A DNA stretch of 17,001 bases, from IMG/VR virus record IMGVR_UViG_3300045988_065566. One strand, written 5' to 3'. The stretch comes from a virus. Within the stretch, counting starts at the first letter, position 1, and each line of letters starts with the position of its first letter. The position numbers and the translations under genes are program-made. The notes under the pieces are model-generated. The model ran no database searches and was not told where the DNA came from. It saw only the letters and a list, made by a program, of their open reading frames with translations. Shown here piece after piece: positions 1-17,001 of the stretch.

Positions 1-40
1 AGGGCGTTGGCTGATACGTCGTTGTTGGAGAGGTGTTGAT
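1..40. repeat. Left inverted terminal repeat (40 bp, perfect)
   Basis: nt 1-40 AGGGCGTTGGCTGATACGTCGTTGTTGGAGAGGTGTTGAT is the exact reverse complement of nt 16962-17001. Identity ends at nt 41/16961. Short ITRs are typical of protein-primed linear phage genomes. Confidence 0.95.
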
Positions 41-912: not shown

Positions 913-1350
913 ATGGCTGACAACGAACTGGCCGTAGCAAACGGCAACAATTTCGCGGCAAACGGTGCCAACGCCGTCTCTCATTACTTCGACACCACTA
1001 CTATGGATGGTAAAATGGCGTTGTATAACGCCATGCAGACCGCCGATAGGGTTGATGAACATCTCAATGAGCCACTGCATGTCACTAATGTGCTTGCGCA
1101 GGCTATTGAGGTTGCTAATCAGGAGACGGGTGAGATCAACTCTTCTACCCGTGTTGTCATTCATGCGGAGGAGGGTGACTTTGCCGCCTCCTCCCCCACG
1201 TTGGCGCACGCTTTTGGTAATCTGTTCGCTATTTTCGGTACGCCGGACGCGTGGAAACAGCCGCTTGTTCTCAAGGTGGTGGAAAAGAAGAGTCGCCGTG
1301 GCTATAAGTTCTTCGACCTCGAACTGATGTCAGAAGACAAGCGCAAGTAA
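913..1350 (+). CDS. Putative single-stranded DNA-binding protein (phage SSB family; positional analog of phi29 gene 5)
   Basis: RBS AAGGAAAGG lies upstream. The pattern ..ALYNAMQ..(x)..V.NV..Q.IEV.N.ETGE....TRVVI..E.G.F...S......FGNLF.IFGTPD.W..PL.LKV resembles the Lactococcus/Streptococcus phage SSB family as I remember it. The order p6-like, SSB, TP, polymerase matches phi29. Confidence 0.5.
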   Translation: MADNELAVANGNNFAANGANAVSHYFDTTTMDGKMALYNAMQTADRVDEHLNEPLHVTNVLAQAIEVANQETGEINSSTRVVIHAEEGDFAASSPTLAHAFGNLFAIFGTPDAWKQPLVLKVVEKKSRRGYKFFDLELMSEDKRK

Positions 1351-1397
1351 CGTGAATGTCCACGTCATATGATAACGTGGTAACGTCCCTATAGGGA
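1349..1397. promoter_or_regulatory. Cluster of ACGT-core motifs and palindromes (possible operator)
   Basis: Four (A/C)ACGT(G/C) motifs within about 40 bp (AACGTG 1349, CACGTC 1361, AACGTG 1374, AACGTC 1382). Inverted repeat CCACGT(1360-1365)-N9-ACGTGG(1375-1380). Perfect 12-bp palindrome TCCCTATAGGGA (1386-1397). Confidence 0.3.
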
Positions 1398-1414
1398 TGT
1401 TGCCGCCAGACTCA

Positions 1415-1456
1415 CCCCTCCCGTCGTTTCCCATCCTTACGGCGGGGGGGTGTTTT
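1415..1456 (+). terminator. Putative intrinsic terminator/attenuator between the SSB and TP genes
   Basis: C-rich arm 1415-1424 pairs with G-rich arm 1439-1449 (about 10 bp, one bulge, one G-U), followed by GTGTTTT. It would lower TP/polymerase expression relative to SSB. Confidence 0.4.
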
Positions 1457-1477
1457 ACACTCATAAGAGGAGGGGGC

Positions 1478-2422
1478 GTGGCAAAACGTAAAAACAACCG
1501 ACGCGCCAACAATCTGAAACGCAACGCCGCCATCAGGTCGGCACAGGTACGCCGAGAGCGAGCTGTCAGAGATTATAGTAACGGACACCTCCCCAAGCAA
1601 ATCACCGAAACGTTTCTGGAAAAACTCAGCGCCCAACAACTCGAACAGGTTGCGCGCCGAATCGGGCAGGAGTTCGGGGAACAACAGCAGGCCTTGAGGG
1701 CACGGGACAGCGAGCCGTATCAGGTCGTGCCGGATGTGCATATCACGAAACTTGATAGGGAGCTGGCGGCGCGTCCGTTGATTACCGACGCGGAAATCGC
1801 CGCCGCCCCGTCGAAACGTCGGAAAACATTACGACAGCAACAGCGCCGCCGTATCGAGGCACGGCGGAAAATCAAACGTGCCCAACAATTCGAGGCCTTG
1901 AGCATGGCGAGCTACACGGTGGGAGAAATCCGTGAGATGGAACGCGCGGGAGAGTCGCCGTTTGACGTGTTGGGCACTCATACGGTCGGCGGTTCGGCGC
2001 GTGACGAACTCACGCGCAACCGTGCGAACATGTTTGGTTCGGAGCGTGGTATGAGTCACGCGCGTGTGATGATACGAGAGGGGGGCAGGAGGAGGCTTGA
2101 ACGGGAGATACTCGAATACGCCGGACTTATAGGTCGAGCGCCATTACGTGCAGGCACTGGAAAAATCCCCAAGAACGAGGGGGTTGCGGATTTTGAGAGA
2201 GTCGCGCAACAGCTTGAAGCATTCGACTCCAATATTTCCCAAAAATTCGCGTCTTTATCGAACCGTCAAAAACGATGGCTGATAAACAACACGAATTTTA
2301 GCACCGTGGTACGCGAGGCTGCATGGTATAATGATAAGACACATAAATGGGAGACCAAAGCGGACGCGGGAGATGTAGAGACTAGACTTGATGAATGGAT
2401 GACCAGCGCGGCACGACACTAA
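1478..2422 (+). CDS. Putative terminal protein (replication primer)
   Basis: Sits directly upstream of the protein-primed polymerase, as phi29 gene 3 does. Extremely basic N-terminus (VAKRKNNRRANNLKRNAAIRSAQVRRER) plus a second R/K-rich block (RRKTLRQQQRRRIEARRKIKR). I prefer the GTG start at 1478 because AAGAGGAGG (1465-1473) precedes it. The track ATG at 1397 would translate through the hairpin. No direct sequence match that I can verify. Confidence 0.55.
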   Translation: MAKRKNNRRANNLKRNAAIRSAQVRRERAVRDYSNGHLPKQITETFLEKLSAQQLEQVARRIGQEFGEQQQALRARDSEPYQVVPDVHITKLDRELAARPLITDAEIAAAPSKRRKTLRQQQRRRIEARRKIKRAQQFEALSMASYTVGEIREMERAGESPFDVLGTHTVGGSARDELTRNRANMFGSERGMSHARVMIREGGRRRLEREILEYAGLIGRAPLRAGTGKIPKNEGVADFERVAQQLEAFDSNISQKFASLSNRQKRWLINNTNFSTVVREAAWYNDKTHKWETKADAGDVETRLDEWMTSAARH

Positions 2423-2434
2423 AGGGATGGAATC

Positions 2435-3895
2435 ATGAAAGAGCGTCGAACGGCGGCAACAGACGGCGCAACACTATTGACGGATGACGGCGTGGAACCA
2501 TTGACGGCGAGCGCCGTTATCCGCCTTACCATGCTCGACCATCATACGCGCGTATGGTGCGCCCACGGATGGCAGGATATCAAACCCATAGCCGCCGAAC
2601 TGTTGAAACGACTCCCGTTGCAGTCGAATCCAGCCAAGGACGGTGTGTGGGGCACGTTCAACATTCGAGGCCACTTCTATAGTTTTCGTGTGCGTATGGG
2701 CGGCATCACCGTGGATTTTGTGGACGTGCGTAATGTCACGCGCGACGATGGATTGAATGTTTCACGTGAAACGTTTGGCGGTGCGGACGATTTGGAGACC
2801 ACGTGGAACATTGCGCAGGAATGCACCGCCCTGAATCTTAAGGGCACGACCATAGCTTCAATGGCGATGACCGACTACATTGATGGCGATTACGCCGGAT
2901 TCAAACGCCATTTTCCACCATTGGATAAAGATGTTTATCACCGTATGCGCCCCTCCTACTATGGGGCGATAGTGTACAGTAAGCCGGGCGAATACCGGGA
3001 CTGCCGAAGCTGGGACGTGAACAGCCTCTACCCGAGTATCATGCGTGATTCGCCCATGCCAGTAGGCTCACCAATATGGTATGGCGGCGAATATCAACAC
3101 GACAATGACTATCCACTACATATCGATGTCATTGCGTTTGATGCAAGGTTGAAACCGGGAAAAACGGCGACACTCACCAATATCCTACCCGTATGGGGGT
3201 ATGAGGGTGAACGCTTGGATAGTACGCTGGGCGTTGTCACCATGCCAGTTACGGATGTGGATTGGGAGACGCTGACCGAAAACTATGACATCCACGTGTG
3301 GGAGCATGTCGGCGGCTGGAAGTTACGCAAATCACACGGACTTTATTATACATACGTGGACAAATGGTTTCACGTGAAACAAACCGCGACGGGTGAGCGC
3401 AGGCAGATGGCGAAACTATTACTGAACTCGCTGGTGGGAAAATTCGGGGCCTCGCTGTACCGTCCCATGTTGCATCCGAAACCGTCTATGGATGGAGGCG
3501 TGGATTTTACCGTGGACAAACCCGAGTCGGCCAACAGTCTGGCATGGCTACCGACCGCCGCATATGTCAACGCCTATGGACGGCAAATACTATCCCGCGC
3601 CATGAACGATAACGCCGAGCGCGTGATCTACGCCGATACCGACGGCATGATACTAGAAGGACTGGACGCGCCCGCAGGCATGGAAACGGATGACCGAAAA
3701 CTAGGCGCGTGGAAAAACGACCACACCTATGAGAGGCTCCGTATCCTAGGCAATCGCAAATATTGTGGTGTGGAAACAGGCGGCGATACCGTCATGCGGC
3801 TGAGCGGCGTGCACCGCGCCGCCCCCATCCCCTATGATGAGTTTATATCCGGGTCACGCCATTTCAACGACGATGGCCATGCTTTTATGCTATAA
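2435..3895 (+). CDS. Protein-primed family-B DNA polymerase (phi29 gp2-like)
   Basis: Motif A WDVNSLYPS, motif B KLLLNSLVGKFG, motif C IYADTDG, and KxY (NRKYCG). Long collinear similarity to phi29 DNAP, e.g. DYPLHI, DKWFHVKQ vs DKWTYIKT, and TRVWCAHGW vs CRVWAYGY. The region between motifs B and C has TPR2-like length. Confidence 0.95.
   Translation: MKERRTAATDGATLLTDDGVEPLTASAVIRLTMLDHHTRVWCAHGWQDIKPIAAELLKRLPLQSNPAKDGVWGTFNIRGHFYSFRVRMGGITVDFVDVRNVTRDDGLNVSRETFGGADDLETTWNIAQECTALNLKGTTIASMAMTDYIDGDYAGFKRHFPPLDKDVYHRMRPSYYGAIVYSKPGEYRDCRSWDVNSLYPSIMRDSPMPVGSPIWYGGEYQHDNDYPLHIDVIAFDARLKPGKTATLTNILPVWGYEGERLDSTLGVVTMPVTDVDWETLTENYDIHVWEHVGGWKLRKSHGLYYTYVDKWFHVKQTATGERRQMAKLLLNSLVGKFGASLYRPMLHPKPSMDGGVDFTVDKPESANSLAWLPTAAYVNAYGRQILSRAMNDNAERVIYADTDGMILEGLDAPAGMETDDRKLGAWKNDHTYERLRILGNRKYCGVETGGDTVMRLSGVHRAAPIPYDEFISGSRHFNDDGHAFML
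2759..2772. repeat. Copy 1 of the 14-bp perfect palindrome GTTTCACGTGAAAC
   Basis: Exact 14-mer inside the polymerase gene, read as ..N V S R E T... Confidence 0.9.
3367..3380. repeat. Copy 2 of the 14-bp perfect palindrome GTTTCACGTGAAAC
   Basis: Exact 14-mer inside the polymerase gene, in a different codon phase (..W F H V K Q..). Confidence 0.9.
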
Positions 3896-3896
3896 T
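3888..3896 (+). promoter_or_regulatory. Extended -10 promoter candidate TGCTATAAT
   Basis: Perfect TGnTATAAT overlapping the polymerase stop codon (TAA 3893-3895). No good -35, which an extended -10 can tolerate. Confidence 0.4.
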
Positions 3897-3902
3897 ATCC
3901 GG

Positions 3903-4066
3903 TAGCGGGATGTGCGTCCCAAGCCGACTCGATGGCCCGACCGGCAGGCAAATCGGTAAGGCGAACTGGTCGGATGTAGACGTGCGTAGCCAACGCCCAG
4001 CGACGGCGAGGGAACCCGCACAGCCTAGCAATCCGGCACGGCGTCGTGATTGACGCCGTGCCTTTT
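3903..4066 (+). ncRNA. Candidate structured non-coding RNA, about 165 nt (pRNA-like RNA or late-operon leader)
   Basis: GC-rich gap bounded by the extended -10 (3888-3896) and a strong terminator (4035-4066). Possible helices are 3907-3916/4017-4026 and 3937-3944/3966-3973. The only ORF is a 47-codon P/R-rich frame with no RBS. The 5' end is only predicted. Confidence 0.35.
4035..4066 (+). terminator. Rho-independent terminator
   Basis: GGCACGGCGTC (4035-4045), loop GTGATT, GACGCCGTGCC (4052-4062), giving a perfect 11-bp GC-rich stem followed by TTTT (4063-4066). Confidence 0.8.
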
Positions 4067-4082
4067 ACTCTAAGAGGTGATT

Positions 4083-4427
4083 ATGGACGACACCGAAACC
4101 CACGACAAGCCGGACACCACGCCCGACGCTGAACCGGACGCCGAACCGACCGACGACAATACGCCGGACCCGGAGCTTGAAGCGCAGGACGACAGCGAAC
4201 CGGAGGATGCGGGCGACGACAAGAACGCCGACATGGCCAACCGTCTCAGCGCTTTGGAAGCGACCGTGGCGGAACTATCCAAAACCATTGAGGCGATGCG
4301 CGACGCCGCCGCAGACCACGTGTTGAACGATGGCCCGGACGGCGATGAGGAGCCGGACGCCACGGAAATGACCGACGATGACTACAACGGCACCTATTCC
4401 ACGTTCGATGACCTTTTTGAAGACTAG
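4083..4427 (+). CDS. Highly acidic protein, putative scaffolding protein (positional analog of phi29 gp7)
   Basis: RBS AAGAGGTGA (4072-4080) then ATG at 4083. About 114 aa, very rich in D/E/P, with a central helical segment (ANRLSALEATVAELSKTIEAMRDAAA). Lies directly upstream of the major capsid gene. Confidence 0.5.
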   Translation: MDDTETHDKPDTTPDAEPDAEPTDDNTPDPELEAQDDSEPEDAGDDKNADMANRLSALEATVAELSKTIEAMRDAAADHVLNDGPDGDEEPDATEMTDDDYNGTYSTFDDLFED

Positions 4428-4449
4428 TGATTAGGAGGGAATGATTATC

Positions 4450-6180
4450 ATGCCAACCACTCCAGTGGTGACGCCCAAACAGCAGTTGCGCCCGCTCACC
4501 GAATTCAACAACGCTCAAATCCTCAATATGATTCGTAACGAGGCATCTCCTGAATACCAACGGAGAATGCCCTCGGCCACTCAGATGAACATGGACCGCC
4601 AAATGGCTACGCTCATGTCCAGCACCCAACTCAAGAACGAGTTCTACTCGGCCTTGGTCAACCGTATCGGCGGTACGTATGTGAACACGTGGCGTTGGAA
4701 TAATCCGCTTGGCGTTTTCCAGCGTGCATCTCAGGCGTATGGCGATACGTGGCAGGAAATCGCCGTAGGTATGCCGCTCGCACAGGTATATGACCCGGAC
4801 GCGGAGTACTTGGGCGCGGACAACTTCCGCAAGTGGAAAATCGATGTGGACAGCCTTTACCATCGTCTGGACTTCGCCCACTTCTACCCCGCTACCACGG
4901 ATGACAAGACGCTCCAGCGCGCTTTCGCCTCAGAAAACGGTTTGGCCTCCCTTACTTCCCAGATTCTCACCTCCTGTTACAATGCGGCTGAGGTTGACTT
5001 GTTCGAGGCCATGTGCCACCAGTTCGTGGAATACGCGAAACTGGGCGGCTATTGGCGCGTCCACATGGGGCATGACCTTAACGACATGGGTTCGACGGAA
5101 ACCGACGCCCGCGACATGTTGCGCCAGATTCGCGCATGGGCCGACACGCTGAAATTCGTGTCTACCCGGTATAATGCGCGTCATATGCCGACGTTTGCCC
5201 GCCCCGACGAACTCGTACTGTTCTGCTCTCCCGAGGTTAAGTCGGCGCTTGACGTGCAGGGCCTCGCGACCGTGTTCCAGCGTACGGACGCTGAGCCGAC
5301 CATTGACCGGATTATCGTCATTCCACAGGACAGGTTCGGCATGGACGGCGTGCAGGCCATTCTTACTACTGACAAGTTTTTGATTGATATTCCCGTTATC
5401 AATGAGATGACCCAGCAGACGAACCCGGTGAACATCAACTCGGTCAACCATTATCTGCATGTCCAGCACATTATCTCGGTGTCCGGTTTCGCCCCGGCCG
5501 TCATGTTCTGGACGGGCGCGGGTTCCACCGCCAAGGTGGTGGCTCCTACCGGTACGACGGCCAAGACGCCGGCCTTCCAGCTTAAACTCGCCATGTACGG
5601 TGGCGGCACGTCCACCCCGTCGAACGTGGCGCGTGGCGGTGCGGTGCAGGTCATTGCGGATACGGCCATCACCAATGACGGTACGGCCACGTTCCGTTCG
5701 GACGCGGTCGAGTATCGTATTGGCGACACCGCCAAGCCGAAGAGCGATTACACGTACATTTCGCCCACCGGCGTACTGGTGGTCGGCCTTGACGAACCGA
5801 ACACCACTATCCCGGTAACGGCGACCGCATTGTACACGAATCCGGCGACGCCGGAAGTGCCGGGTACGGTGGCCGCCGCCCTGAGCGTGCCGGTGGTTGG
5901 CGACGGTATCATTGGATTCAGCCCGTCGATTATCGCGTCGATTGCCGTCAACGTCTCGAATGTGACTACGGGTCATACGGTTCAGGCGACTGCCGTAGCG
6001 ACTATGATTGACGGGCGAACCGCCGACGTTACCATGCAGGCCGCATGGACATCCGGCACCCCGGCCAACGCCACCGTGTCCGAGTCGGGTGTCGTTACCG
6101 GCGTCAAGGCGGGCGCGTCCGATATCACCGCCACGCTGTTCGGCGTATCCGGTAAGAAGAGCGTGACCGTGACCGCGTGA
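4450..6180 (+). CDS. Major capsid protein with C-terminal Ig-like (Big_2) domain (phi29 gp8-like)
   Basis: Position and size fit. The C-terminal roughly 80 aa (..VQATAVATMIDGRTADVTMQAAWTSGTPANATVSESGVVTGVKAGASDITATLFGVSGKKSVTVTA) is a classic Big_2 signature, as in phi29 gp8. AGGAGG at 4433-4438 favours ATG 4450 (11-nt spacing) over ATG 4441 (2 nt). Confidence 0.88.
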   Translation: MPTTPVVTPKQQLRPLTEFNNAQILNMIRNEASPEYQRRMPSATQMNMDRQMATLMSSTQLKNEFYSALVNRIGGTYVNTWRWNNPLGVFQRASQAYGDTWQEIAVGMPLAQVYDPDAEYLGADNFRKWKIDVDSLYHRLDFAHFYPATTDDKTLQRAFASENGLASLTSQILTSCYNAAEVDLFEAMCHQFVEYAKLGGYWRVHMGHDLNDMGSTETDARDMLRQIRAWADTLKFVSTRYNARHMPTFARPDELVLFCSPEVKSALDVQGLATVFQRTDAEPTIDRIIVIPQDRFGMDGVQAILTTDKFLIDIPVINEMTQQTNPVNINSVNHYLHVQHIISVSGFAPAVMFWTGAGSTAKVVAPTGTTAKTPAFQLKLAMYGGGTSTPSNVARGGAVQVIADTAITNDGTATFRSDAVEYRIGDTAKPKSDYTYISPTGVLVVGLDEPNTTIPVTATALYTNPATPEVPGTVAAALSVPVVGDGIIGFSPSIIASIAVNVSNVTTGHTVQATAVATMIDGRTADVTMQAAWTSGTPANATVSESGVVTGVKAGASDITATLFGVSGKKSVTVTA

Positions 6181-6186
6181 TATAAT
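6178..6186 (+). promoter_or_regulatory. Extended -10 promoter candidate TGATATAAT
   Basis: Perfect TGnTATAAT overlapping the capsid stop codon (TGA 6178-6180). Same arrangement as at 3888-3896. Confidence 0.35.
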
Positions 6187-6232
6187 GAGAGGGTGGCCGG
6201 CTGGCTACTCTCTATCACAGTGTGATACAGGA

Positions 6233-6273
6233 CAGTGCCCGGAGCGCAAGCCACGTGAGCGCTCCGGACACTG
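6233..6273 (+). other. Long imperfect hairpin with a CACGTG loop
   Basis: CAGTGCCCGGAGCGC (6233-6247) pairs with GCGCTCCGGACACTG (6259-6273): 15 bp with one C/A mismatch and an 11-nt loop AAGCCACGTGA. ACAGTG/CACTGT words recur at 6217, 6232, 6269 and 6276, which allows alternative pairings. Confidence 0.6.
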
Positions 6274-6304
6274 TGACAGTCGCCTAATCTGCGACATAAT
6301 AAAA

Positions 6305-6336
6305 GGGAGTGTTTCACGTGAAACACTCCCTTCTTT
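6305..6336. terminator. Intrinsic terminator built on a 26-bp perfect palindrome (contains copy 3 of GTTTCACGTGAAAC)
   Basis: GGGAGTGTTTCACGTGAAACACTCCC (6305-6330) is preceded by AAAA and followed by TTCTTT. The 14-mer core is at 6311-6324. Confidence 0.75.
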
Positions 6337-6350
6337 ATGGAAGGGATAGT

Positions 6351-8600
6351 ATGCTGAGAGATATCAACCCTAACGTCGAGGCGACGTTTAACTGGGCTCA
6401 ATGGACGCCCAACACGTCGCTGAAACTCTGTAATGTGCCGTGGGATAGTAGTTACCGTGACCTAGCCCGGTTCGAGTCACCGCAGAAACAACAGGAATGG
6501 TTTGACCGACGGCCCGGCATTGACAGGGTGCATGGAGTCATGCACATGTTCGGCCAACCCGTGCGCGTCGAACTGCCATTTAACGAGGCGTCCAACTACA
6601 ACTATGTCGTGGTGTATAACGATTACCCCGACTTGGAGGTGCCACGGTATTGGTATTATTTCATCAACCACGTGGATTACATCAATGCGTACACTACTCA
6701 GCTCACTGTACAGTTGGACGTTTGGCAGTCGTTCCAGCATGTACTTAGGTTTGGATCATGCTATGTGGTGCGAGGCCATATCGGCATTGCCAACGAAAAC
6801 CAGATGACCGATTATGGTCGCAGTTATCTTGCACTACCCGAAGGGCTGGACACCGGTAGCGAAATGGTGACGGTAAACCAACAGTACAAGTCTCTTATCA
6901 GCATGGACGGGAGAAATCTGAATTACGGCGTAATAGTCGTGAGCACGGTAGATTTGTCAGCGGACGCGGGCAATCAGGAAAAACCGTCTCTCACTACTGC
7001 GGGCGGCTCTCTGTTTGAGAACATGGCTAACGGTGCTGAAATACTGTACTTTAAGGACATCCAGTCTATCCGAGTGTTTATGGGAGTGGGCTCTACTTTT
7101 TCATGGATAACACAGGGTATTGTAAACATGTACATGATACCCTCTTTAGACGATGACTTTCTTAAGCAATCCGGCTATGTCGTAGATAAGCTGTTTGGGA
7201 AAACACTCCCTTCGGAATTAAATAATCGTATCTACCGTTTCCCCCGGTCGGCCACAAATGCGCCCAGCAGGTATGAAGACATTATTACCATTAATGATTT
7301 TCGTGATAATTTTAATATCCCTAAACGTTATAAAAACCTTAAAAAACTCAAATGCTACCCCTATTCTACTGTTGAATGCACTTGCTTGAATGGCACTAAT
7401 ATCACCTATAAGCCCGAAAATATCCAAAGCGATAATCTGGTTATTAGAGCGGTGCATAATTACGCGCCCAATGGCGCGCGCTTGAACTTTTACCCGGTTG
7501 GGTACAATAAGGCGGGTGCAAGCGAGATCGCTCCTCTTGATAAAAACAATGGGTTACCCATTGATAGCGGGGAAATGTTGGACGCCGCGTTTGGCATCAG
7601 CAATTTCCCTCAATTTGTGATAGTCAACAATGGTGCCCAGTTGGCAATGGCAAACAGTGCCTACACTCGTTCCTACAGTCAACAGTCCGCTGACTGGGCG
7701 TACCAAAAAGCGCAGATGGGCATCAGTCAGTCTCTTGCGGCCACGGCCATGCAAAACCAGTACAACACCCAAGCCAACAAACTCGCTATCGGCAACCGCA
7801 ACGCCAATAACGCGATACAAGCAACCTCGCTTAACACCAGTCTGGACAACACAACGTATATCAACAATCAGCGAGCTGACCTCGCACAGCTTAATAACGT
7901 GGTTAACGGCGTGGTCGGGGTGGCGGGCAACGCCGCTTCTGGCAATGTCGGGGGCGCGGTATCGGCATTAGGCGGTGCGGTTATGAATGGTGTCAACACT
8001 GAGGCAAACCGCAGTATCAACAATACCGCCGCCCAACTTTCCACGGCGAACTCGCTGAGTACCAACGCGGCCACAACAAGTCAGGCCAACACATACGGCT
8101 CTCAGACTACAGCGCTTTCAAACCAGTTGGCCCAAAATATGGCGGATATGAACGCGGATTACGCTCAACGTTCCGCGTTCGGAGACTATCAAAACACCAT
8201 TGCGGGTATCAATGCACAGGTACAGCAGATGCAATTAACACCCCCGACCACCTCCGGCGCCATCGGCGGAGACGGTTTTAACCTCGCAAACGGTATTGTC
8301 GGGGTGTTGGTTCGATTTAAGACGTGCGCACCCTCAGCTCTGCGGAGCGTCGGAGAGTACATGTTGCGTTACGGGTATTTTATCCAGCGTTTCATCACGC
8401 CGCCGCAATCGCTGGAATGTATGACAAAATTCACTTACTGGCAGATGCAAGAGTGTTACGTGCGAGGTGATTTGCCCGAGCAGTATCGGCAGACCATTAA
8501 AGGCGTGTTCGAGTCTGGGGCTACTATATGGACTAACCCGGATGATATCGGCGTGACCGATTGGGCGGATAACGACCCATTGCCGGGCATCTCATTCTAG
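6351..8600 (+). CDS. Tail knob / distal tube protein (phi29 gp9-like)
   Basis: N-terminus matches the gp9 pattern: NVPWDSSYRD..EWFD vs phi29 DVPFSNDYKNT..NWFN, and YNYVVVYND....YWYYFI..VDYIN...TQLTVQLDVWQSF vs SYIMFQNADYGNKWFYAFV..LEF.....YVHFEIDVLQTWMF. The YPY motif (KLKCYPYSTVE) is present. I use ATG 6351 after GGAAGGGA. The track GTG at 6309 lies inside the terminator. Confidence 0.8.
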   Translation: MLRDINPNVEATFNWAQWTPNTSLKLCNVPWDSSYRDLARFESPQKQQEWFDRRPGIDRVHGVMHMFGQPVRVELPFNEASNYNYVVVYNDYPDLEVPRYWYYFINHVDYINAYTTQLTVQLDVWQSFQHVLRFGSCYVVRGHIGIANENQMTDYGRSYLALPEGLDTGSEMVTVNQQYKSLISMDGRNLNYGVIVVSTVDLSADAGNQEKPSLTTAGGSLFENMANGAEILYFKDIQSIRVFMGVGSTFSWITQGIVNMYMIPSLDDDFLKQSGYVVDKLFGKTLPSELNNRIYRFPRSATNAPSRYEDIITINDFRDNFNIPKRYKNLKKLKCYPYSTVECTCLNGTNITYKPENIQSDNLVIRAVHNYAPNGARLNFYPVGYNKAGASEIAPLDKNNGLPIDSGEMLDAAFGISNFPQFVIVNNGAQLAMANSAYTRSYSQQSADWAYQKAQMGISQSLAATAMQNQYNTQANKLAIGNRNANNAIQATSLNTSLDNTTYINNQRADLAQLNNVVNGVVGVAGNAASGNVGGAVSALGGAVMNGVNTEANRSINNTAAQLSTANSLSTNAATTSQANTYGSQTTALSNQLAQNMADMNADYAQRSAFGDYQNTIAGINAQVQQMQLTPPTTSGAIGGDGFNLANGIVGVLVRFKTCAPSALRSVGEYMLRYGYFIQRFITPPQSLECMTKFTYWQMQECYVRGDLPEQYRQTIKGVFESGATIWTNPDDIGVTDWADNDPLPGISF

Positions 8601-8615: not shown

Positions 8616-9572
8616 ATGTCTAGGTCGAGGAAAAATCAGAATCGTAGGGGCGGCGCGTTGCATCCGCGTGGCAATTACGCCAAGGCGCGCGCCGCCGACC
8701 TTGACGCAATGTACTATCACCTGTTGACTGAACTGGCACTGAACCGGCTCAGCTGGCGGGGATTGCCGCCCACCGTGGATGAACGATGGCTGGAAATGTG
8801 TCTGTGTGAATACGGTTGCGCGTTGTTTTTCGAGGACAAACGTATAGGCCGGTTCCTCGTAACGCAGGCCGGGTATCAAGGCCGGTTGAACGTGTATAAT
8901 AATCCGACGTGTTTCGAGCCGGTCGGGGTCAACTATCATTACAAGCAACTCAAGGCGGGCACGGAGTGCATCCCCATTTGGGATAATCGTATGCGCATGA
9001 GTTTCAAGGATATTCTATGGCAGTATGCGCGGCGTCTTGCGGACATTGACAAGGCGTATGATGTGAACTTGGAGAGCCTGAAGCTTCCGACCATTATCAC
9101 CGCCGACCCGCGTACCAAGCTCACCGTACAGAACATGTTGCAACAGCGGCAGGACGGGCAGGATTATATCATCGGCTATGATTCGCTTGACCCCGGTAGC
9201 ATGTTCCAGCCGTGGCCCAACACCACCCCGTATCTGCTGGACAAGTTTATCCAGCAAAAAGCGCAGGTGACTAATGAGGTGTTGGGGTATCTCGGTATCC
9301 AGTCTTCCGGCACGGAGAAAAAAGAACGGCTCATATCGGATGAGGTGGCGCAAGCCAACGAGAAAACGGACTTGTTCCGCCTGAGTTTCCTCAAGGCCCG
9401 GCAGGAGGCGGCAACCCAAATAAACCGTTTGTGGCCATCTCTTAATGTCTGGGTTGAGTATGCGGACGTGCAAAGCTCCGGCGTACCCAACGCACTGGAC
9501 TCCAGCGCGACCGGCACGACTGATATTGATATGCCCGCCTCGTATGACGCGGGTATCGGAGGTGTATTGTGA
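8616..9572 (+). CDS. Portal / head-tail connector protein (phi29 gp10-like upper collar)
   Basis: Collinear matches to phi29 gp10: WRGLPPTVD vs WENLPPTIN, EKKERLISDEV vs EKKERMVTDEV, FLKARQEAATQINRLW vs FLKSREEACEKINELYG. The basic N-terminus and length (318 vs 309 aa) are also similar. Confidence 0.9.
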   Translation: MSRSRKNQNRRGGALHPRGNYAKARAADLDAMYYHLLTELALNRLSWRGLPPTVDERWLEMCLCEYGCALFFEDKRIGRFLVTQAGYQGRLNVYNNPTCFEPVGVNYHYKQLKAGTECIPIWDNRMRMSFKDILWQYARRLADIDKAYDVNLESLKLPTIITADPRTKLTVQNMLQQRQDGQDYIIGYDSLDPGSMFQPWPNTTPYLLDKFIQQKAQVTNEVLGYLGIQSSGTEKKERLISDEVAQANEKTDLFRLSFLKARQEAATQINRLWPSLNVWVEYADVQSSGVPNALDSSATGTTDIDMPASYDAGIGGVL

Positions 9573-10186
9573 GGCCACATATGGCACAGAGTTTTAGCGC
9601 CTATGCAATGGCAACGCCCGGAGAGTACACCGAAACCCTCGGCAACCTCATTGCGTTGGGATACGATACGGACGCCAAACTGCATCTGAGCGCCGACTAT
9701 TACCCGATTTACGATGAATCACATCGCGCCGAACTCAACGAGAAAATCATCCGCCATTACGCGCTTCGGGAAATCGGACAGGAAACCGCACAACAGTTCA
9801 TCTTCTACCTGGGGATGACGATGGCGGAAATCATGCCATATTTTAATGAGCGCTACAGGACGCTAGCGTTGAAATATGACCCATTGAACACTATGGAAAT
9901 TGTCAGTGAAAGCCTGTCCAATACTGTAGCCCAGTCCAGCGGCAAAACCAGCGCCTCTCAGGATAGTGCGACCCGAAGCTCCTCGGACGGCACCAGCTCA
10001 AGTAGCACCAAGTCCCAGTCTTATGACTCGGAAGTGCCCGCAACCGGCGTGCAAGGTGATTTTGCTCGATACGCGACTCATGCCAATCAGGCGCAAGCAG
10101 ATACGGACGGCAGTAGCCATAGCACGCAAGATACCTCTTCTCAGTCCCATAGTACATCCAGCACGGAATGGCAACACGACGCATGA
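9569..10186 (+). CDS. Lower collar protein (phi29 gp11-like), N-terminal and central part
   Basis: HYALREIGQETAQQF....MAEIMPYFNERY matches the collar-family H.EIGQET..F / MPY(Y/F)N.. pattern. It is followed by an S/T-rich segment (..SEVPATGVQGDFARYATHAN..). GTG 9569 lies 6 nt after GGAGG (9558-9562) and overlaps the portal stop. The ORF stops at TGA 10184-10186, before the conserved C-terminal motif. Confidence 0.75.
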   Translation: MRPHMAQSFSAYAMATPGEYTETLGNLIALGYDTDAKLHLSADYYPIYDESHRAELNEKIIRHYALREIGQETAQQFIFYLGMTMAEIMPYFNERYRTLALKYDPLNTMEIVSESLSNTVAQSSGKTSASQDSATRSSSDGTSSSSTKSQSYDSEVPATGVQGDFARYATHANQAQADTDGSSHSTQDTSSQSHSTSSTEWQHDA

Positions 10187-12927: not shown

Positions 12928-12957
12928 ATACCCCGTCCGGTACGCCGGGCGGGGTAT
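12928..12957 (+). other. GC-rich hairpin after the fibre gene (no U-tract)
   Basis: ATACCCCGTCCGG (12928-12940), loop TACG, CCGGGCGGGGTAT (12945-12957): 13 bp with one G-U. Its 3' arm overlaps the TATACT box. Confidence 0.55.
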
Positions 12958-12960
12958 ACT
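12955..12960 (+). promoter_or_regulatory. -10-like box TATACT, 6 nt upstream of the ATG at 12967 (leaderless-type)
   Basis: Same TATACT-N6-ATG geometry as at the portal gene. No SD upstream of ATG 12967. Confidence 0.3.
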
Positions 12961-12966
12961 AATACC

Positions 12967-14181
12967 ATGGTAGACGTACAAGCATGGCTGGAACGCACCC
13001 AGAACCAATATTGGGACATGGACGGGGCCTACGGTGCCCAATGCTGGGATTTATGGGCAAAGTACTGCATGGACAATTACAATCTGTCGTTAGGCGACTG
13101 CATCACCCCGACAGGTTACGCAGAAGGCAATTACACCATGTTCCCCACCACATCCGCCGTGGGGCGCGTTTTTGAGAAAAAAGACGCCGACTATACACCC
13201 GGCATGGGGGATGTCGTGTTTTGGAAATTCGGCAGTCAAAACTACCCCGGCAGCCACGTGGCCATCGTGTGGGGCGGTATCCAAGGCGACAGTATCGATG
13301 TACTAACGCAAAACCCGACGCCCGCCGTACATCAAACCTTACCGCTTGCGAAAGGGTCACAGCTTCTCGGCTATCTGCATCCCACGGCACTACCGGAACC
13401 GCCGGAATCCGGCGACAACCCGACTGGCGGTGACAATCCGGGCGTGAGCGTGGACGGCGACATCTCCGCGTGGATACAATTGCAGGGGGATGATCTCGTA
13501 TATCATAGTGGCTCGGGCACGATATCATCACAAGCCATTTTCTATAAGGCAAGCGCCCAGACTTGGGTATATCGCGGCGGCACGGGTCAGCCGGACGCCG
13601 ACCACGGTCAGAGCACGCCAAGCGTAGGCGACGGGAAAAGCTCATACGCGCTGTATGTAATCGGTACAGTCGAATCATCATTACGCTGGGATGCGGTCGA
13701 ATCAAACAATCAGGGTATCGGTATCGCACAATGGAGTTTTGGACGCCGCTTGCAGGTTCTGAATGCAATGAGAGCGGTGGATGCTGTAGGATATGAGGCG
13801 TTTGCCGCCGCCGCGCCGGGTATCGCCGCGCTCATGGAATCAGGCGGCACATTCAACAGAGCGTTAACCGGTAGCGAAGTCGCGGCATTCCAGACGTGGG
13901 CGCGGCGCACGGGATCACGGCAGGGCCAGCGTAATCAGTTCGCAAGGGATTACGAGAGCTACCCGAAGACGTATGAGGATGCGAAAATGCAAATACTATG
14001 GGTAAGCGCCTATCATCAAAACCCGGCGGGCGCGTTGAACGTGCCTCATGCTTCATCACTTACCCAACTGTATAATAATATCCTCAATACACCCCCGTTC
14101 GGGCCGTATGGGACACGCTACAATACCGTCTACTCGCTGTTGAACGTATGGGACGGCACCAGCGCACCACCGAACTTCTGA
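12967..14181 (+). CDS. Tail-associated peptidoglycan hydrolase: N-terminal CHAP domain plus C-terminal lysozyme-like domain (functional analog of phi29 gp13)
   Basis: CHAP signature: DGAYGAQCWDL (catalytic Cys) and YPGSHVAIV (His). A Pro/Gly linker follows (PEPPESGDNPTGGDNPG). The C-terminal part has ..VIGTVESS....NNQGIGIAQWSFGRR.., which resembles the phage tail lysozyme E...G(I/L)xQW..R pattern. Confidence 0.72.
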   Translation: MVDVQAWLERTQNQYWDMDGAYGAQCWDLWAKYCMDNYNLSLGDCITPTGYAEGNYTMFPTTSAVGRVFEKKDADYTPGMGDVVFWKFGSQNYPGSHVAIVWGGIQGDSIDVLTQNPTPAVHQTLPLAKGSQLLGYLHPTALPEPPESGDNPTGGDNPGVSVDGDISAWIQLQGDDLVYHSGSGTISSQAIFYKASAQTWVYRGGTGQPDADHGQSTPSVGDGKSSYALYVIGTVESSLRWDAVESNNQGIGIAQWSFGRRLQVLNAMRAVDAVGYEAFAAAAPGIAALMESGGTFNRALTGSEVAAFQTWARRTGSRQGQRNQFARDYESYPKTYEDAKMQILWVSAYHQNPAGALNVPHASSLTQLYNNILNTPPFGPYGTRYNTVYSLLNVWDGTSAPPNF

Positions 14182-14226
14182 TACAACGACAGACCGGTAG
14201 ATATCCACCGGTCTGTCACTGTTGTA
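14182..14226 (+). other. Long hairpin after the hydrolase gene (no U-tract)
   Basis: TACAAC+GACAGACCGGT (14182-14198), loop AGATATCC, ACCGGTCTGTC (14207-14217), then a 3-nt bulge and GTTGTA (14221-14226). The 11-bp core is perfect and 6 further bp extend it. Confidence 0.6.
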
Positions 14227-14235
14227 TGGTAAAAT
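14227..14235 (+). promoter_or_regulatory. Extended -10-like box TGGTAAAAT upstream of the ATPase gene
   Basis: TGnTAAAAT lies immediately 3' of the hairpin. ATG 14243 begins 7 nt after the hexamer, a leaderless-type geometry. No SD precedes ATG 14234 or 14243. Confidence 0.3.
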
Positions 14236-15340
14236 GGATGTTATGGAGAGGCTGTTAGCGGAGGGCGATTATTACGATTATGGGAGCGTATTATCCTATC
14301 ATGCGCCTTGGATGTTCGTAATCGGCGCGCGCGGTCTCGGAAAAACCTATGGTGCCAAAAAACTTGTCATCGGTGACTGGATTAAAAAACGCTGGCAATT
14401 CATCTACTTACGCCGTACTGCCGAAGAACAGAAAAACAAGGGCACATGGTTCGCTGACATAGCGGAACAATACCCGGAATTGGAATTCCGCGTATCCGGG
14501 AACCAAGCCGAATGTCATTGGCTGAATGACAGGGACGCCACCACGGACAAGCACGGCAAGACACGCCCCACATGGCATGTCATGGGGTATTTTATCGCCC
14601 TCAGTCAGGCAGGACAAGTGAAATCAGTCGCATACCCCAAGGTGCGAACCGTAATCTTTGATGAAATATTCCCCGATAATATGCATTACCTTGGAGGCGA
14701 GGTCACGGCGCTTGAGGAATTCTATAATACCGTTGACCGCTGGAACGACAGGGTTCGCGTCATCATGTGCAGTAACGCCGTAACCCTCGCTAACCCGTAT
14801 TTCAGCGCATTCGGTATTAACCTCAAGCCACAACTTGATAATCACACGCAATATCAACGGTATTGCGACGGATTTATCATAGTGGAATTAGCCGATTACG
14901 GCGGGTTCAGCGCCAAGGTGGCCACATCGAAATTCGGACAGTTCCTACGCAAATATGACGAAAATTATGCGAACTATGCAATCAACAACGACTTTAGGGA
15001 TAACGCCAATACTCTCATTAGTGATTTTAACAACGCCGGTTATGCATTCACACTAAGAACCACCGAATACGGTATTTTTAATGTATATCAGCAATTAAGC
15101 GATACAGATGAAGTGTTGTATATCATCACCAAAAAACAGCCGAAAATCACCAGAGATTTTACGTTTGATTACCGACTGGTCGATAATGATTGCATCATGC
15201 TCAAACGCTCCGACGATGTGACGCAGAAAATACTAAACGCCTATCGTGTCGGACGATTGCGTTTTGAGACACCACAAATCAAGGCGGAATTCAGCATGAT
15301 ACTTGGCGGCTTACTACAACAATCAGGTATAAGAAAGTGA
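14234..15340 (+). CDS. DNA encapsidation (packaging) ATPase, phi29 gp16-like
   Basis: Collinear with phi29 gp16: VLSYHAPWMFVIGARGLGKTYG (Walker A) vs MLSYDRILNFVIGARGIGKSY; QFIYLRR; YPKVRTVIFDEIF (Walker B) vs YPNVSTIVFDEFI; IMCSNAVTLANPYF vs CLSNAVSVVNPYF; GRLRFE vs GYLRFD. The start is uncertain: TTG 14222, ATG 14234 or ATG 14243. Confidence 0.92.
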   Translation: MDVMERLLAEGDYYDYGSVLSYHAPWMFVIGARGLGKTYGAKKLVIGDWIKKRWQFIYLRRTAEEQKNKGTWFADIAEQYPELEFRVSGNQAECHWLNDRDATTDKHGKTRPTWHVMGYFIALSQAGQVKSVAYPKVRTVIFDEIFPDNMHYLGGEVTALEEFYNTVDRWNDRVRVIMCSNAVTLANPYFSAFGINLKPQLDNHTQYQRYCDGFIIVELADYGGFSAKVATSKFGQFLRKYDENYANYAINNDFRDNANTLISDFNNAGYAFTLRTTEYGIFNVYQQLSDTDEVLYIITKKQPKITRDFTFDYRLVDNDCIMLKRSDDVTQKILNAYRVGRLRFETPQIKAEFSMILGGLLQQSGIRK

Positions 15341-15350
15341 GGAAATATTC

Positions 15351-15716
15351 ATGCCAGTTCGTGAGTTGATTGTCATCGGCATTGTTTTTTTATTGGCGCT
15401 GATAGACTATATTACCGGCGTGGTAAACGCAATCATGCACGGCGAACTGTCCAGTGAGAGAATGAGGCAGGGACTTGGGCACAAGTTCGCATATCTGGCG
15501 GTTATTTGTGTCGCGTTGATTGTGGAATACGGCTCGGACTACATCAATCTCGGAATCGAACTACCCGTATTCATCCCCGTATGCGCAGGTATTTGTCTGA
15601 CTGAAATCACATCAATCATCGAAAACTGTATAAAAATCAACCCCGAATTAAGCGGGTCGAATATTTCCCACATCTTCAATGTTGACAAAAAAGAAAACAA
15701 CGGTAAGGAAGATTAG
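15351..15716 (+). CDS. Holin (three predicted transmembrane segments; phage_holin_4-like)
   Basis: RBS GAGGA. Hydrophobic segments are LIVIGIVFLLALIDYITGVV, FAYLAVICVALIVEY and LPVFIPVCAGICLTEITSII. The DYITG... and ..E..SI.EN motifs are typical of that holin family. Charged C-terminal tail. Sits immediately upstream of the endolysin. Confidence 0.8.
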   Translation: MPVRELIVIGIVFLLALIDYITGVVNAIMHGELSSERMRQGLGHKFAYLAVICVALIVEYGSDYINLGIELPVFIPVCAGICLTEITSIIENCIKINPELSGSNISHIFNVDKKENNGKED

Positions 15717-15719
15717 GCA

Positions 15720-16622
15720 ATGGATAACATCACATGGATAGGCTCCCCCAACCACTACAACGGGCGAGACGGACACCACGTAGACCACATCACCCTACAC
15801 ATCATGGTAGGCTATCTAACCAGCACAGACAACTTTTTTCAATCACCCGGAAGCTCGGCATCAGCCCACTACGGAATAGGCGGAGACGGCACTATCCATC
15901 AATACGTAAGTGAAAGTGACGGCTCATGGTCAGACGCCAACTACGCCAGCAACAACGGAACCATCAGCATCGAACACGAAGGCGGAATGGAGGGAGTCCC
16001 CTGCACGCAAGCCTGCATGGACGCATCCGCCGCACTCTGCGCCGATATCGCCCAACGATACGGATGGAAACGCCTATGGCACGACGGACTCAACGGAAAC
16101 ATCTGGCTACACCGCGAAGTCCCCGGATCCGACCACGCCGGATGTCCCGACCTCGCGCCCAACGGACTTGACGTAAACTACGTCATCAACAAAGCAAACC
16201 AAATACTACAAAACGGAGGTATCGAAAAAATGGCGTTCACAGATGAAGATATCATGAAATTCTGGACACACAAACTACCCAACGGACGCCCAGCCCGCGA
16301 CATCATAAGCGACGCAACCAGCGACATCATTCGAATGCACGACAACGGCATGGTCGGCGGCCAATGGATGCACATACTACCCAACGGGCGATATGCACGA
16401 GATATCATAAGCGACGCAACCAGCGACATCATTCGTATACATGATAACATGCTCCCAGCACTGACAACACAGGTAACAGCGCTTACGGCGGCAGTCAAAA
16501 CCCTATCCGAGTCAATCGGCGCAGACCCTGACACCATTGCCAAGGCAGTACAGGACGCCGTAAAAGCCAAGCTCGATGCGCTCGAAATCACCGTAAACGC
16601 CAAAGACAAGGCAGAAAAGTAG
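15720..16622 (+). CDS. Endolysin: N-acetylmuramoyl-L-alanine amidase (Amidase_2/PGRP type) with a repeat-containing C-terminal region
   Basis: RBS AAGGAAG. Amidase_2 features: ITLHIMVG, SAHYGIGGDGTIHQYV, ISIEHEG, HREVPGSDHAGCPD (Zn ligands H/H/C). The C-terminus has two 34-aa repeats and a coiled-coil-like tail. Confidence 0.85.
   Translation: MDNITWIGSPNHYNGRDGHHVDHITLHIMVGYLTSTDNFFQSPGSSASAHYGIGGDGTIHQYVSESDGSWSDANYASNNGTISIEHEGGMEGVPCTQACMDASAALCADIAQRYGWKRLWHDGLNGNIWLHREVPGSDHAGCPDLAPNGLDVNYVINKANQILQNGGIEKMAFTDEDIMKFWTHKLPNGRPARDIISDATSDIIRMHDNGMVGGQWMHILPNGRYARDIISDATSDIIRIHDNMLPALTTQVTALTAAVKTLSESIGADPDTIAKAVQDAVKAKLDALEITVNAKDKAEK
16275..16448 (+). repeat. Two direct repeat units, 102-bp period, inside the endolysin C-terminal region
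   Basis: 16275-16346 and 16377-16448 share a 32-nt identical core, ATCATAAGCGACGCAACCAGCGACATCATTCG (16302-16333 and 16404-16435). They encode LPNGR(P/Y)ARDIISDATSDIIR(M/I)HDN twice. Confidence 0.9.
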
Positions 16623-16639
16623 CCACACGCACAAGAAAG

Positions 16640-16670
16640 CCCCCTAGGTATATAACCTAGGGGGTTTCTT
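16640..16670. terminator. Bidirectional intrinsic terminator between convergent genes
   Basis: CCCCCTAGGT (16640-16649), loop ATATA, ACCTAGGGGG (16655-16664), followed by TTTCTT and preceded by AGAAAG (T-rich on the minus strand). Lies between the endolysin (+) and the right-end gene (-). Confidence 0.8.
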
Positions 16671-16710
16671 ATATATCAGCTCAAAACTCCCACCCAGATA
16701 TCGACTTCAC

Positions 16711-16947
16711 TCATAAAACAAGGTCATCAATCACCTTAACATTATATATATGCCAACCATCACATTCACGGAGGCATACATAATCAAAATCACAGTCACC
16801 GTACACATAATCAAGAACCTCACGAAGAGCCGCCTCGGCATTAATACCGACATGAGCCCTATAAAGAATCGGATTATCTCCAGTATCAATAAAAACAGGA
16901 CAAAATTGATTCTCAGACTCAATGACAACGGCCTTAACTTTAAACAT
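16711..16947 (-). CDS. Small acidic hypothetical protein (78 aa), right-end inward-facing gene
   Basis: AAGGAG (complement of 16956-16961) sits 8 nt before ATG 16947. The track GTG at 16956 is unlikely. By hand count it is 38% G+C, well below the sampled structural-gene stretches. Net negative charge. No family recognised. Confidence 0.6.
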   Translation of the reverse strand: MFKVKAVVIESENQFCPVFIDTGDNPILYRAHVGINAEAALREVLDYVYGDCDFDYVCLRECDGWHIYNVKVIDDLVL

Positions 16948-16961
16948 TTTAATCACTCCTT

Positions 16962-17001
16962 ATCAACACCTCTCCAACAACGACGTATCAGCCAACGCCC
17001 T
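16962..17001. repeat. Right inverted terminal repeat (40 bp, perfect)
   Basis: Exact reverse complement of nt 1-40. Confidence 0.95.

Follow-up and report, generated by a model that had tools for sequence, protein, structure and literature searches.

The viral DNA catalogued as IMG/VR record IMGVR_UViG_3300045988_065566 carries three exact copies of a 14-bp perfect palindrome, GTTTCACGTGAAAC, two of them inside the gene for a protein-primed DNA polymerase and one between the major capsid and tail-knob genes. Here, the window refers to the whole 17,001-nt stretch that was analyzed, and all coordinates are positions within it. By its sequence, the palindrome is the core of parS, the near-universal chromosomal binding site of ParB/Spo0J, and it is probable that the three copies are selected parS sites that are read by the ParB of the host. 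An earlier note on this DNA had stated that the motif matches no recognized operator consensus, which is incorrect, as it is canonical chromosomal parS. The published consensus is TGTTNCACGTGAAACA for B. subtilis and C. glutamicum, GTTTCACGTGAAAC for M. smegmatis, and TGTTTCACGTGAAACA for H. neptunium, and it is kept across Firmicutes, Actinobacteria, and Proteobacteria (PMC7022226, Table 1). Extended to 16-mers, the copies at 2758, 3366, and 6310 agree with TGTTTCACGTGAAACA at 15, 15, and 16 of the 16 positions, respectively, and the match to the 16-bp palindrome TGTTNCACGTGAAACA is likewise 15, 15, and 16 of 16. Moreover, the 14-mer was found in 28 papers, and of the 23 that were listed, all but about four deal with ParB, parS, or the related protein Noc.

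A recount over the whole window placed the exact copies at 2759-2772, 3367-3380, and 6311-6324, where the earlier note had put them, and the genome-wide count with one or two mismatches that it proposed returned these same three sites, with no further site at ≤2 mismatches. Its exclusion of chance as the source of the copies also held, as 0 of 200 dinucleotide-preserving shuffles gave three matches (shuffle mean, 0.06). The bare hexamer CACGTG, additional occurrences of which had been pointed out as well, shows no enrichment (10 sites compared with 7.3 ± 2.7 expected, a count of at least 10 being reached in 40 of 200 shuffles). When IMG/VR was scanned with the 14-mer, matches were found in many unrelated viral contigs with G+C contents of 30-69%, many of them holding multiple copies, and the matches nearly always lay within the longer palindrome (A)TGTTTCACGTGAAACA(T).

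The retention of the sites among relatives argues that they are under selection as nucleotide sequence. Close relatives of the window number at least 113 in IMG/VR, and the 80 that were compared have polymerases with 88-96% amino-acid identity and 81-92% nucleotide identity to that of the window. Nearly all of these share the positions of the three sites, and 66 of the 80 loci have at least three copies at ≤1 mismatch, in 1.1 Mb of sequence where only ~0.004 exact copies of the 14-mer would be expected. Within the polymerase gene, the first site is read as N-VSRET (GTT TCA CGT GAA AC) and the second as W-FHVK-Q, in different codon phases as originally described, and the proposal drawn from this, that conservation acts at the level of the nucleic acid, is borne out by the retention of synonymous positions. 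Of 79 unique relatives, 77% have an exact site 1 and 58% an exact site 2, retention that places the two sites in the top 0.4% and the top 5%, respectively, of the 14-nt windows of the gene. Among those relatives that encode the same amino acids, 81% are nucleotide-identical at site 1 and 71% at site 2, compared with medians of 23% and 16%, respectively, for windows in the same codon phase, and the Ser, Arg, and His codons within the two sites exceed the 90th percentile for constancy among codons of the same amino acid. The comparison of synonymous positions in related phages that had been suggested as a check has therefore placed both polymerase sites well above the background of the gene. Three relatives (L062, L073, and L080) carry a symmetric variant, GTCTCACGTGAGAC, at polymerase site 1, where both half-sites are altered by synonymous substitutions, and their third site likewise has a GAGAC half; this may reflect tuning to a slightly different host ParB or shared decay.

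The third site differs in its setting. It is the center of a perfect palindrome of 26-30 bp, in agreement with its earlier description as the core of a long palindrome, and the transcribed palindrome is predicted to form a hairpin with 13 bp in its stem and 4 nt in its loop (-20.9 kcal/mol, z = -6.1), after which comes UUCUUUAU. It is plausible that this hairpin is an intrinsic terminator or, alternatively, a hairpin in the 5' untranslated region of the tail gene, and it may terminate transcription of the capsid gene, a second and separable role that would apply to copy 3 alone. Two alternative placements of the third site are found among the relatives. The intergenic hairpin holds it in 38 genomes (the window plus 37 relatives), whereas in 35 relatives that lack the hairpin, it lies ~165 nt downstream within the tail-knob gene, in codons for VSRET, and the two placements co-occur in none of the genomes. 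In the tail-gene version, conservation of wobble positions is 0.97 compared with 0.77 in the flanks, a comparison that carries a mild bias because the sample was picked by a degenerate motif pattern. Because about half of the relatives are without the hairpin, a terminator role is not obligatory, and on the same grounds nothing supports the previous suggestion that the palindrome serves to modulate the capsid terminator. The hairpin is one of three strong hairpins in the region 6181-6350 (6188-6213, 6232-6274, and 6303-6332; z = -8.4), and a promoter-like site, GTGACA-16-CATAAT, lies just upstream of it at 6273-6300. The loop of the middle hairpin, 6232-6274, contains CACGTG, and relatives without the parS hairpin retain this middle one too. 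In 12 of the 80 relatives, a fourth exact parS is found directly 5' of a hairpin of the type seen at 12930-12958 in the window, with upstream sequence that varies among them.

A clade of similarly built phages provides a negative control. In the cultured Bifidobacterium podophages BD811P2, BP1, BadAztec1, and BadAargau2, nothing came closer to the 16-mer than one match with 3 mismatches, in BadAztec1, which is no more than chance allows, and 80 BD811P2-like loci from IMG/VR (1.18 Mb, G+C content of 0.52) likewise lack any site at ≤2 mismatches. The motif is therefore not a product of base composition or of shared protein sequence. Set against this control clade, the relatives show the marks of selection on the nucleotide sequence of parS, and the overall pattern indicates that purifying selection maintains the sites.

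The likely reader of the sites is the ParB of the host, as no ParB was detected in the phage. None of the open reading frames (ORFs) of the window matched ParB, ParA, or helix-turn-helix families in Pfam, PHROGs, or NCBIfam, and a search of the unassigned ORFs against PDB sequences gave no ParB or helix-turn-helix match, these being sequence searches only, with the structures of the early proteins orf172 and orf106 not predicted. The window thus combines multiple sites of the host type with no detected phage ParB, and it does not resemble a self-encoded partition cassette, as neither a parA nor a parB gene was detected among its ORFs. Clustering of the ORFs of 80 phi29-like genomes revealed no gene family that tracks the presence of parS; the best candidate, a p6-like double-stranded-DNA-binding protein (22/35 vs. 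5/45), most likely reflects shared ancestry. A host reader is probable, given that ParABS is reported for every actinobacterium (PMC4255298) and that consensus parS has been reported from all 12 OMM12 gut genomes, one of them a Bifidobacterium (PMC10197239). With regard to the earlier proposal of a dimeric DNA-binding protein on a dyad-symmetric site, the type of target and the possibility of a host factor have stood, whereas the phage p4-like switch protein that was also suggested is unsupported.

The nature of the phage and of its probable host follows from the remaining features of the window (Table 1). Its two outermost 40-base segments (1-40/16962-17001) are exact reverse complements of each other, and these perfect inverted terminal repeats imply that the 17,001 bp make up an entire linear genome. 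Such repeats are expected for protein-primed replication. Together with matches to Pfam families DNA_pol_B_2, Phi29_MCP, Phage_connector, Podovirus_Gp16, and Phi29_Phage_SSB, and with the gene order, they identify the window as a complete protein-primed phi29-like podophage, of a lytic type, with every large ORF on the + strand and no lysogeny genes detectable in the window. The order of SSB, ORF 1397-2422, and polymerase is the same as in Actinomyces phage Av-1, where the middle gene encodes the terminal protein. The polymerase ORF is short (486 amino acids compared with 566-572 in Av-1 and phi29, based on annotated gene coordinates), and its Pfam match begins at profile position 170. No Rfam family, packaging RNA included, matched anywhere in the window, in contrast to the packaging RNA annotated near the right end of Av-1; the right end of the window (16623-17001) holds a strong bidirectional hairpin at 16637-16667 and a minus-strand ORF at 16711-16956. 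The host is probably a Bifidobacterium, because the closest cultured polymerases (33-36% amino-acid identity) all belong to Bifidobacterium podophages (BP1, BD811P1-3, BadAztec, and BadAargau), because part of the endolysin gene (15720-16211) has 78% nucleotide identity to the B. dentium phage BD811P2, and because a search of 185,579 species-representative genomes found a single relative of the endolysin, in Bifidobacterium olomucense (49% amino-acid identity). In a megablast search of the whole window against cultured phages, the endolysin gene gave the only match.

Table 1. Candidate parS sites, associated hairpins, and genes of the window
Feature	Position	Strand	Details
parS-1	2758-2773	.	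TGTTTCACGTGAAACG, 15/16 to consensus; DNA polymerase codons N-V-S-R-E-T
parS-2	3366-3381	.	GGTTTCACGTGAAACA, 15/16 to consensus; DNA polymerase codons W-F-H-V-K-Q, codon phase unlike parS-1
parS-3	6310-6325	.	TGTTTCACGTGAAACA, 16/16; intergenic, between capsid gene stop (6180) and tail-knob ATG (6351)
Palindromic hairpin carrying parS-3	6303-6340	+	13-bp stem, ACGU loop, U-rich tail
Tail-knob position of third parS in 35 relatives	6474-6487	.	Window has GAGTCACCGCAGAA, not parS
Conserved intergenic hairpin	12930-12958	+	-25.7 kcal/mol; window has the hairpin, no parS
Left inverted terminal repeat	1-40	.	Perfect 40-bp partner at 16962-17001
phi29-type SSB	913-1350	+	Phi29_Phage_SSB
ORF 1397-2422	1397-2422	+	No family match; position of the terminal protein gene of Actinomyces phage Av-1
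Family B protein-primed DNA polymerase	2435-3895	+	Pfam DNA_pol_B_2, 1.8e-33; PHROG 1907
phi29-type major capsid protein, upstream of parS-3	4441-6180	+	Pfam Phi29_MCP, 2.4e-85
Tail-knob gene (gp9-like), downstream of parS-3	6351-8600	+	PHROG 2248, 1.1e-86; Pfam phi29_gp9_C
Connector	8616-9572	+	
Lower collar	9569-10186	+	
CHAP/lysozyme tail lysin	12967-14181	+	
gp16 packaging ATPase	14222-15340	+	Podovirus_Gp16
Holin	15351-15716	+	
Amidase endolysin	15720-16622	+	

For the function of the sites, phage phi29 offers the closest precedent. The passage of PMC2731898 that cites Meijer et al. (2005, EMBO J) reports that phi29 has five parS sites and that Spo0J helps to segregate its genome into the prespore, and our scan of phi29, which recovered four copies of TGTTTCACGTGGAACA (B. 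subtilis parS on the other strand) and one weaker site, fits this number. Starting from what is observed in the window, namely sequence identical to parS that is kept by purifying selection, a sequence of events can be proposed in which dimers of host ParB bound to cytidine triphosphate would load at the three sites and, from what is known of ParB biochemistry, spread along a large part or the whole of the 17-kb genome. If the analogy with phi29 applies, phage DNA coated in this way would then be handled as a chromosomal origin region and moved by ParA, and it could possibly be tethered at the cell pole, as happens in other actinobacteria (PMC4255298). A phage genome that is infecting or has stalled would thereby be positioned in the cell and passed on to its daughters instead of being lost, which could serve a phage that is unable to integrate as a carrier-state or bet-hedging device. 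That positioning or inheritance is the purpose of the sites, rather than titration of ParB or recruitment of SMC, is an argument by analogy to which we would give slightly less than an even chance.

Several points weigh against the interpretation of the palindromes as selected sites for host ParB or against the purpose proposed for them. Some relatives are without one or two of the sites or carry them with 1-2 mismatches, and no single site is therefore essential. The retention rank of site 2 is only within the top 5%, and a closely related, similarly built clade of Bifidobacterium podophages manages without parS. The host has been deduced from sequence neighbors. The proposed pay-off is drawn from phi29, the one phage for which it is reported, where it depends on sporulation, and bifidobacteria do not sporulate. 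In addition, the polymerase of the window was not found in 185,579 species-representative genomes, and thus isolate assemblies and genome bins give no hint that these phages persist as episomes.

The most serious alternative keeps the same binder, host ParB on parS, and assigns it a different purpose. Replicating phage genomes could outnumber the parS sites of the host, drawing ParB away from the host origin and disturbing ParA regulation, SMC loading, segregation, replication control, or division, or else ParB and SMC could be recruited to compact or organize the phage DNA as it replicates. Each phage genome does have several copies of consensus strength, host chromosomes have few (1-10 in 12 gut genomes [PMC10197239] or up to ~20 [PMC7022226]), ParB loads SMC and interacts with ParA and with the control of DnaA in other bacteria (PMC7022226, PMC4255298), and the lack of episomal signs in genome assemblies would also be in keeping with such a purpose. 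However, all six of the Gram-positive species in Table 1 of PMC7022226 can do without parB, so titration may gain the phage little, and the phi29 precedent favors segregation. We regard titration and SMC recruitment, even taken together, as unlikely.

It is far less probable that the palindrome is the operator of a dimeric regulator encoded by the phage, such as a p4-like switch protein or repressor acting on polymerase transcription and the capsid terminator. Such a regulator would suit a dyad-symmetric site, the small early ORFs 33-551, 563-883, and 4077-4427 are without assigned function, and one copy adjoins the promoter-like site. Against this, the motif is identical to universal parS, and it recurs in phi29-like phages whose polymerases are 25-35% identical to that of the window and that share no gene family consistently. 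Moreover, ORFs 33-551 and 563-883 (orf172 and orf106) have homologs in Bifidobacterium phages without any parS, no helix-turn-helix domain was detected in our searches, and no gene family tracks the sites. Two of the three sites are buried within a gene at a distance from any promoter, and nothing supports the block of polymerase transcription that had been put forward.

Still more doubtful is a motif acting as RNA, in which a GUUUC-ACGU-GAAAC hairpin, whether terminator core, RNase site, or translational-repressor site, was copied to three places. Copy 3 does lie within a very stable hairpin with a U-tract, and the fourth copy of some relatives abuts another hairpin. Yet the two polymerase copies fold no better than shuffled sequences and have no extended pairing (z = -1.5 and -0.8), the third copy of the 35 relatives that have it in the tail gene is free of any hairpin, no Rfam family matched, and a 5-bp RNA stem does not need a perfect DNA palindrome equal to parS. 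Equally hard to credit is the idea that the sites are functionless leftovers, either recombined fragments of host DNA or by-products of protein sequence, for although single sites decay in some relatives and the sister clade lives without them, three exact copies occur in three sequence contexts and two codon phases, synonymous positions within them vary far less than is usual for the gene, the two placements of the third site never occur together, and parS is enriched ~10,000-fold in phi29-like phages that were sampled without regard to the motif.

This last result comes from a set of 79 phi29-like gut phage loci, obtained via the polymerase of one distant phage, of which 31 have at least one parS-like site. 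The set contains 47 exact 14-mers where 0.004 would be expected and 69 sites at ≤2 mismatches where 0.27 would be expected, with a distribution that is patchy, clade by clade. Among the 120 IMG/VR matches to the 14-mer that were listed, 16 are phi29-like; one of these is a close relative of the window and 15 are distant, with 21-43% identity to its proteins and 25-35% identity between the polymerases. In several distant phi29-like phages, parS immediately follows the end of a gene or, like copy 3 of the window, lies between the genes for capsid and tail, whereas the same scan found no parS site in Av-1 or in Eggerthella phage LE1-1. The sites of low-G+C phi29-like phages are often intergenic tandem pairs 24-26 bp apart (5526/5552 and 12131/12155 in L100; ~4430-4720 in L210-L223), and one such pair, between capsid and tail genes, has the relative position of copy 3 of the window. 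Another low-G+C phi29-like phage, L287, has 1-mismatch parS-like sites at both extreme ends (12-27 and 15692-15707), apparently within terminal repeats, while L230 and L234, also phi29-like, have three copies each of the symmetric variant TGTTCCACGTGGAACA, at ~1140, 6460, and 8755. Outside the phi29-like phages, three viral contigs with G+C contents of 0.50-0.54 have clustered copies of ATGTTTCACGTGAAACAT, three within ~700 bp in L190 (241-960) and five within ~800-900 bp in L113 (2658-3443) and L172 (10536-11461), an arrangement suggestive of the centromere arrays of plasmid-like or phage-plasmid elements.

No description of parS in phi29-like phages outside Bacillus was found in the literature searched, and the term is absent from a 2024 review of phi29-like diversity. 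A phi29-like phage with host parS is in itself a known kind, and what appears to be new, judging from the sequence neighbors of the window, is the context of a non-sporulating actinobacterial host. What had been an unknown operator now has a precise and testable identity, that of host ParB sites on a phage of virulent type, and the phi29 habit of borrowing the host centromere would extend to a high-G+C, non-sporulating gut host. Such sites appear to be common among uncultured gut phi29-like phages (~40% of the motif-unselected sample), and the putative Bifidobacterium clade of the window carries them as a whole. More speculatively, the hijacking of host ParABS through parS could be a general and repeatedly evolved strategy of phi29-like phages, rather than a peculiarity of sporulation in Bacillus, that gives them a carrier state or control over segregation. 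We consider this possible but doubtful; if true, a plasmid-like, partitioned carrier state would help to explain how nominally virulent phages persist in the gut. The question of whether small, non-integrating phages use ParABS to persist, in pseudolysogeny or a carrier state, or to disturb host segregation is thereby made testable. Among Bifidobacterium podophages, the two sister clades with and without parS form a natural pair for comparison, and parS itself is a simple sequence marker that sorts phi29-like phages into two classes of life-style.

With respect to known systems, the sites of the window have the same 16-bp sequence as chromosomal ParABS centromeres, where parS is clustered near oriC, and the same expected reader protein, but they lie on a 17-kb virus with no adjoining parA or parB genes. 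The parABS system of P1 and the sopABC system of N15 are alike in that a phage genome carries centromere-like sites for its segregation as an episome. However, P1 and N15 encode their own ParA and ParB and have their own centromere, whereas neither was detected in the window phage, which would borrow the site of its host and, unlike these plasmid-prophages, has no detectable lysogeny genes. The closest parallel is phi29, although the two phages are not equivalent. The large ORFs are all on one strand in the window only, the variant in the window is the fully symmetric TGTTTCACGTGAAACA rather than the TGTTCCACGTGAAACA of phi29, and its host is probably a Bifidobacterium, a non-sporulating actinobacterium, for which reason entrapment in the spore cannot be the pay-off and the partner system of Spo0A boxes is not expected. 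In other respects, the likeness is close. Both phages have a small genome of ~17-19 kb with protein-primed replication, a phi29-type capsid, a connector, a gp16 ATPase, and SSB, and in both, several copies of host-type parS are scattered in genes and beside terminators, the phi29 site at 17243 lying a few bases 5' of the terminator TD1. Finally, phi29 has no ParB of its own and none was detected in the window phage, and the binder in phi29 is the Spo0J/ParB of the host, as it presumably is in the window phage.

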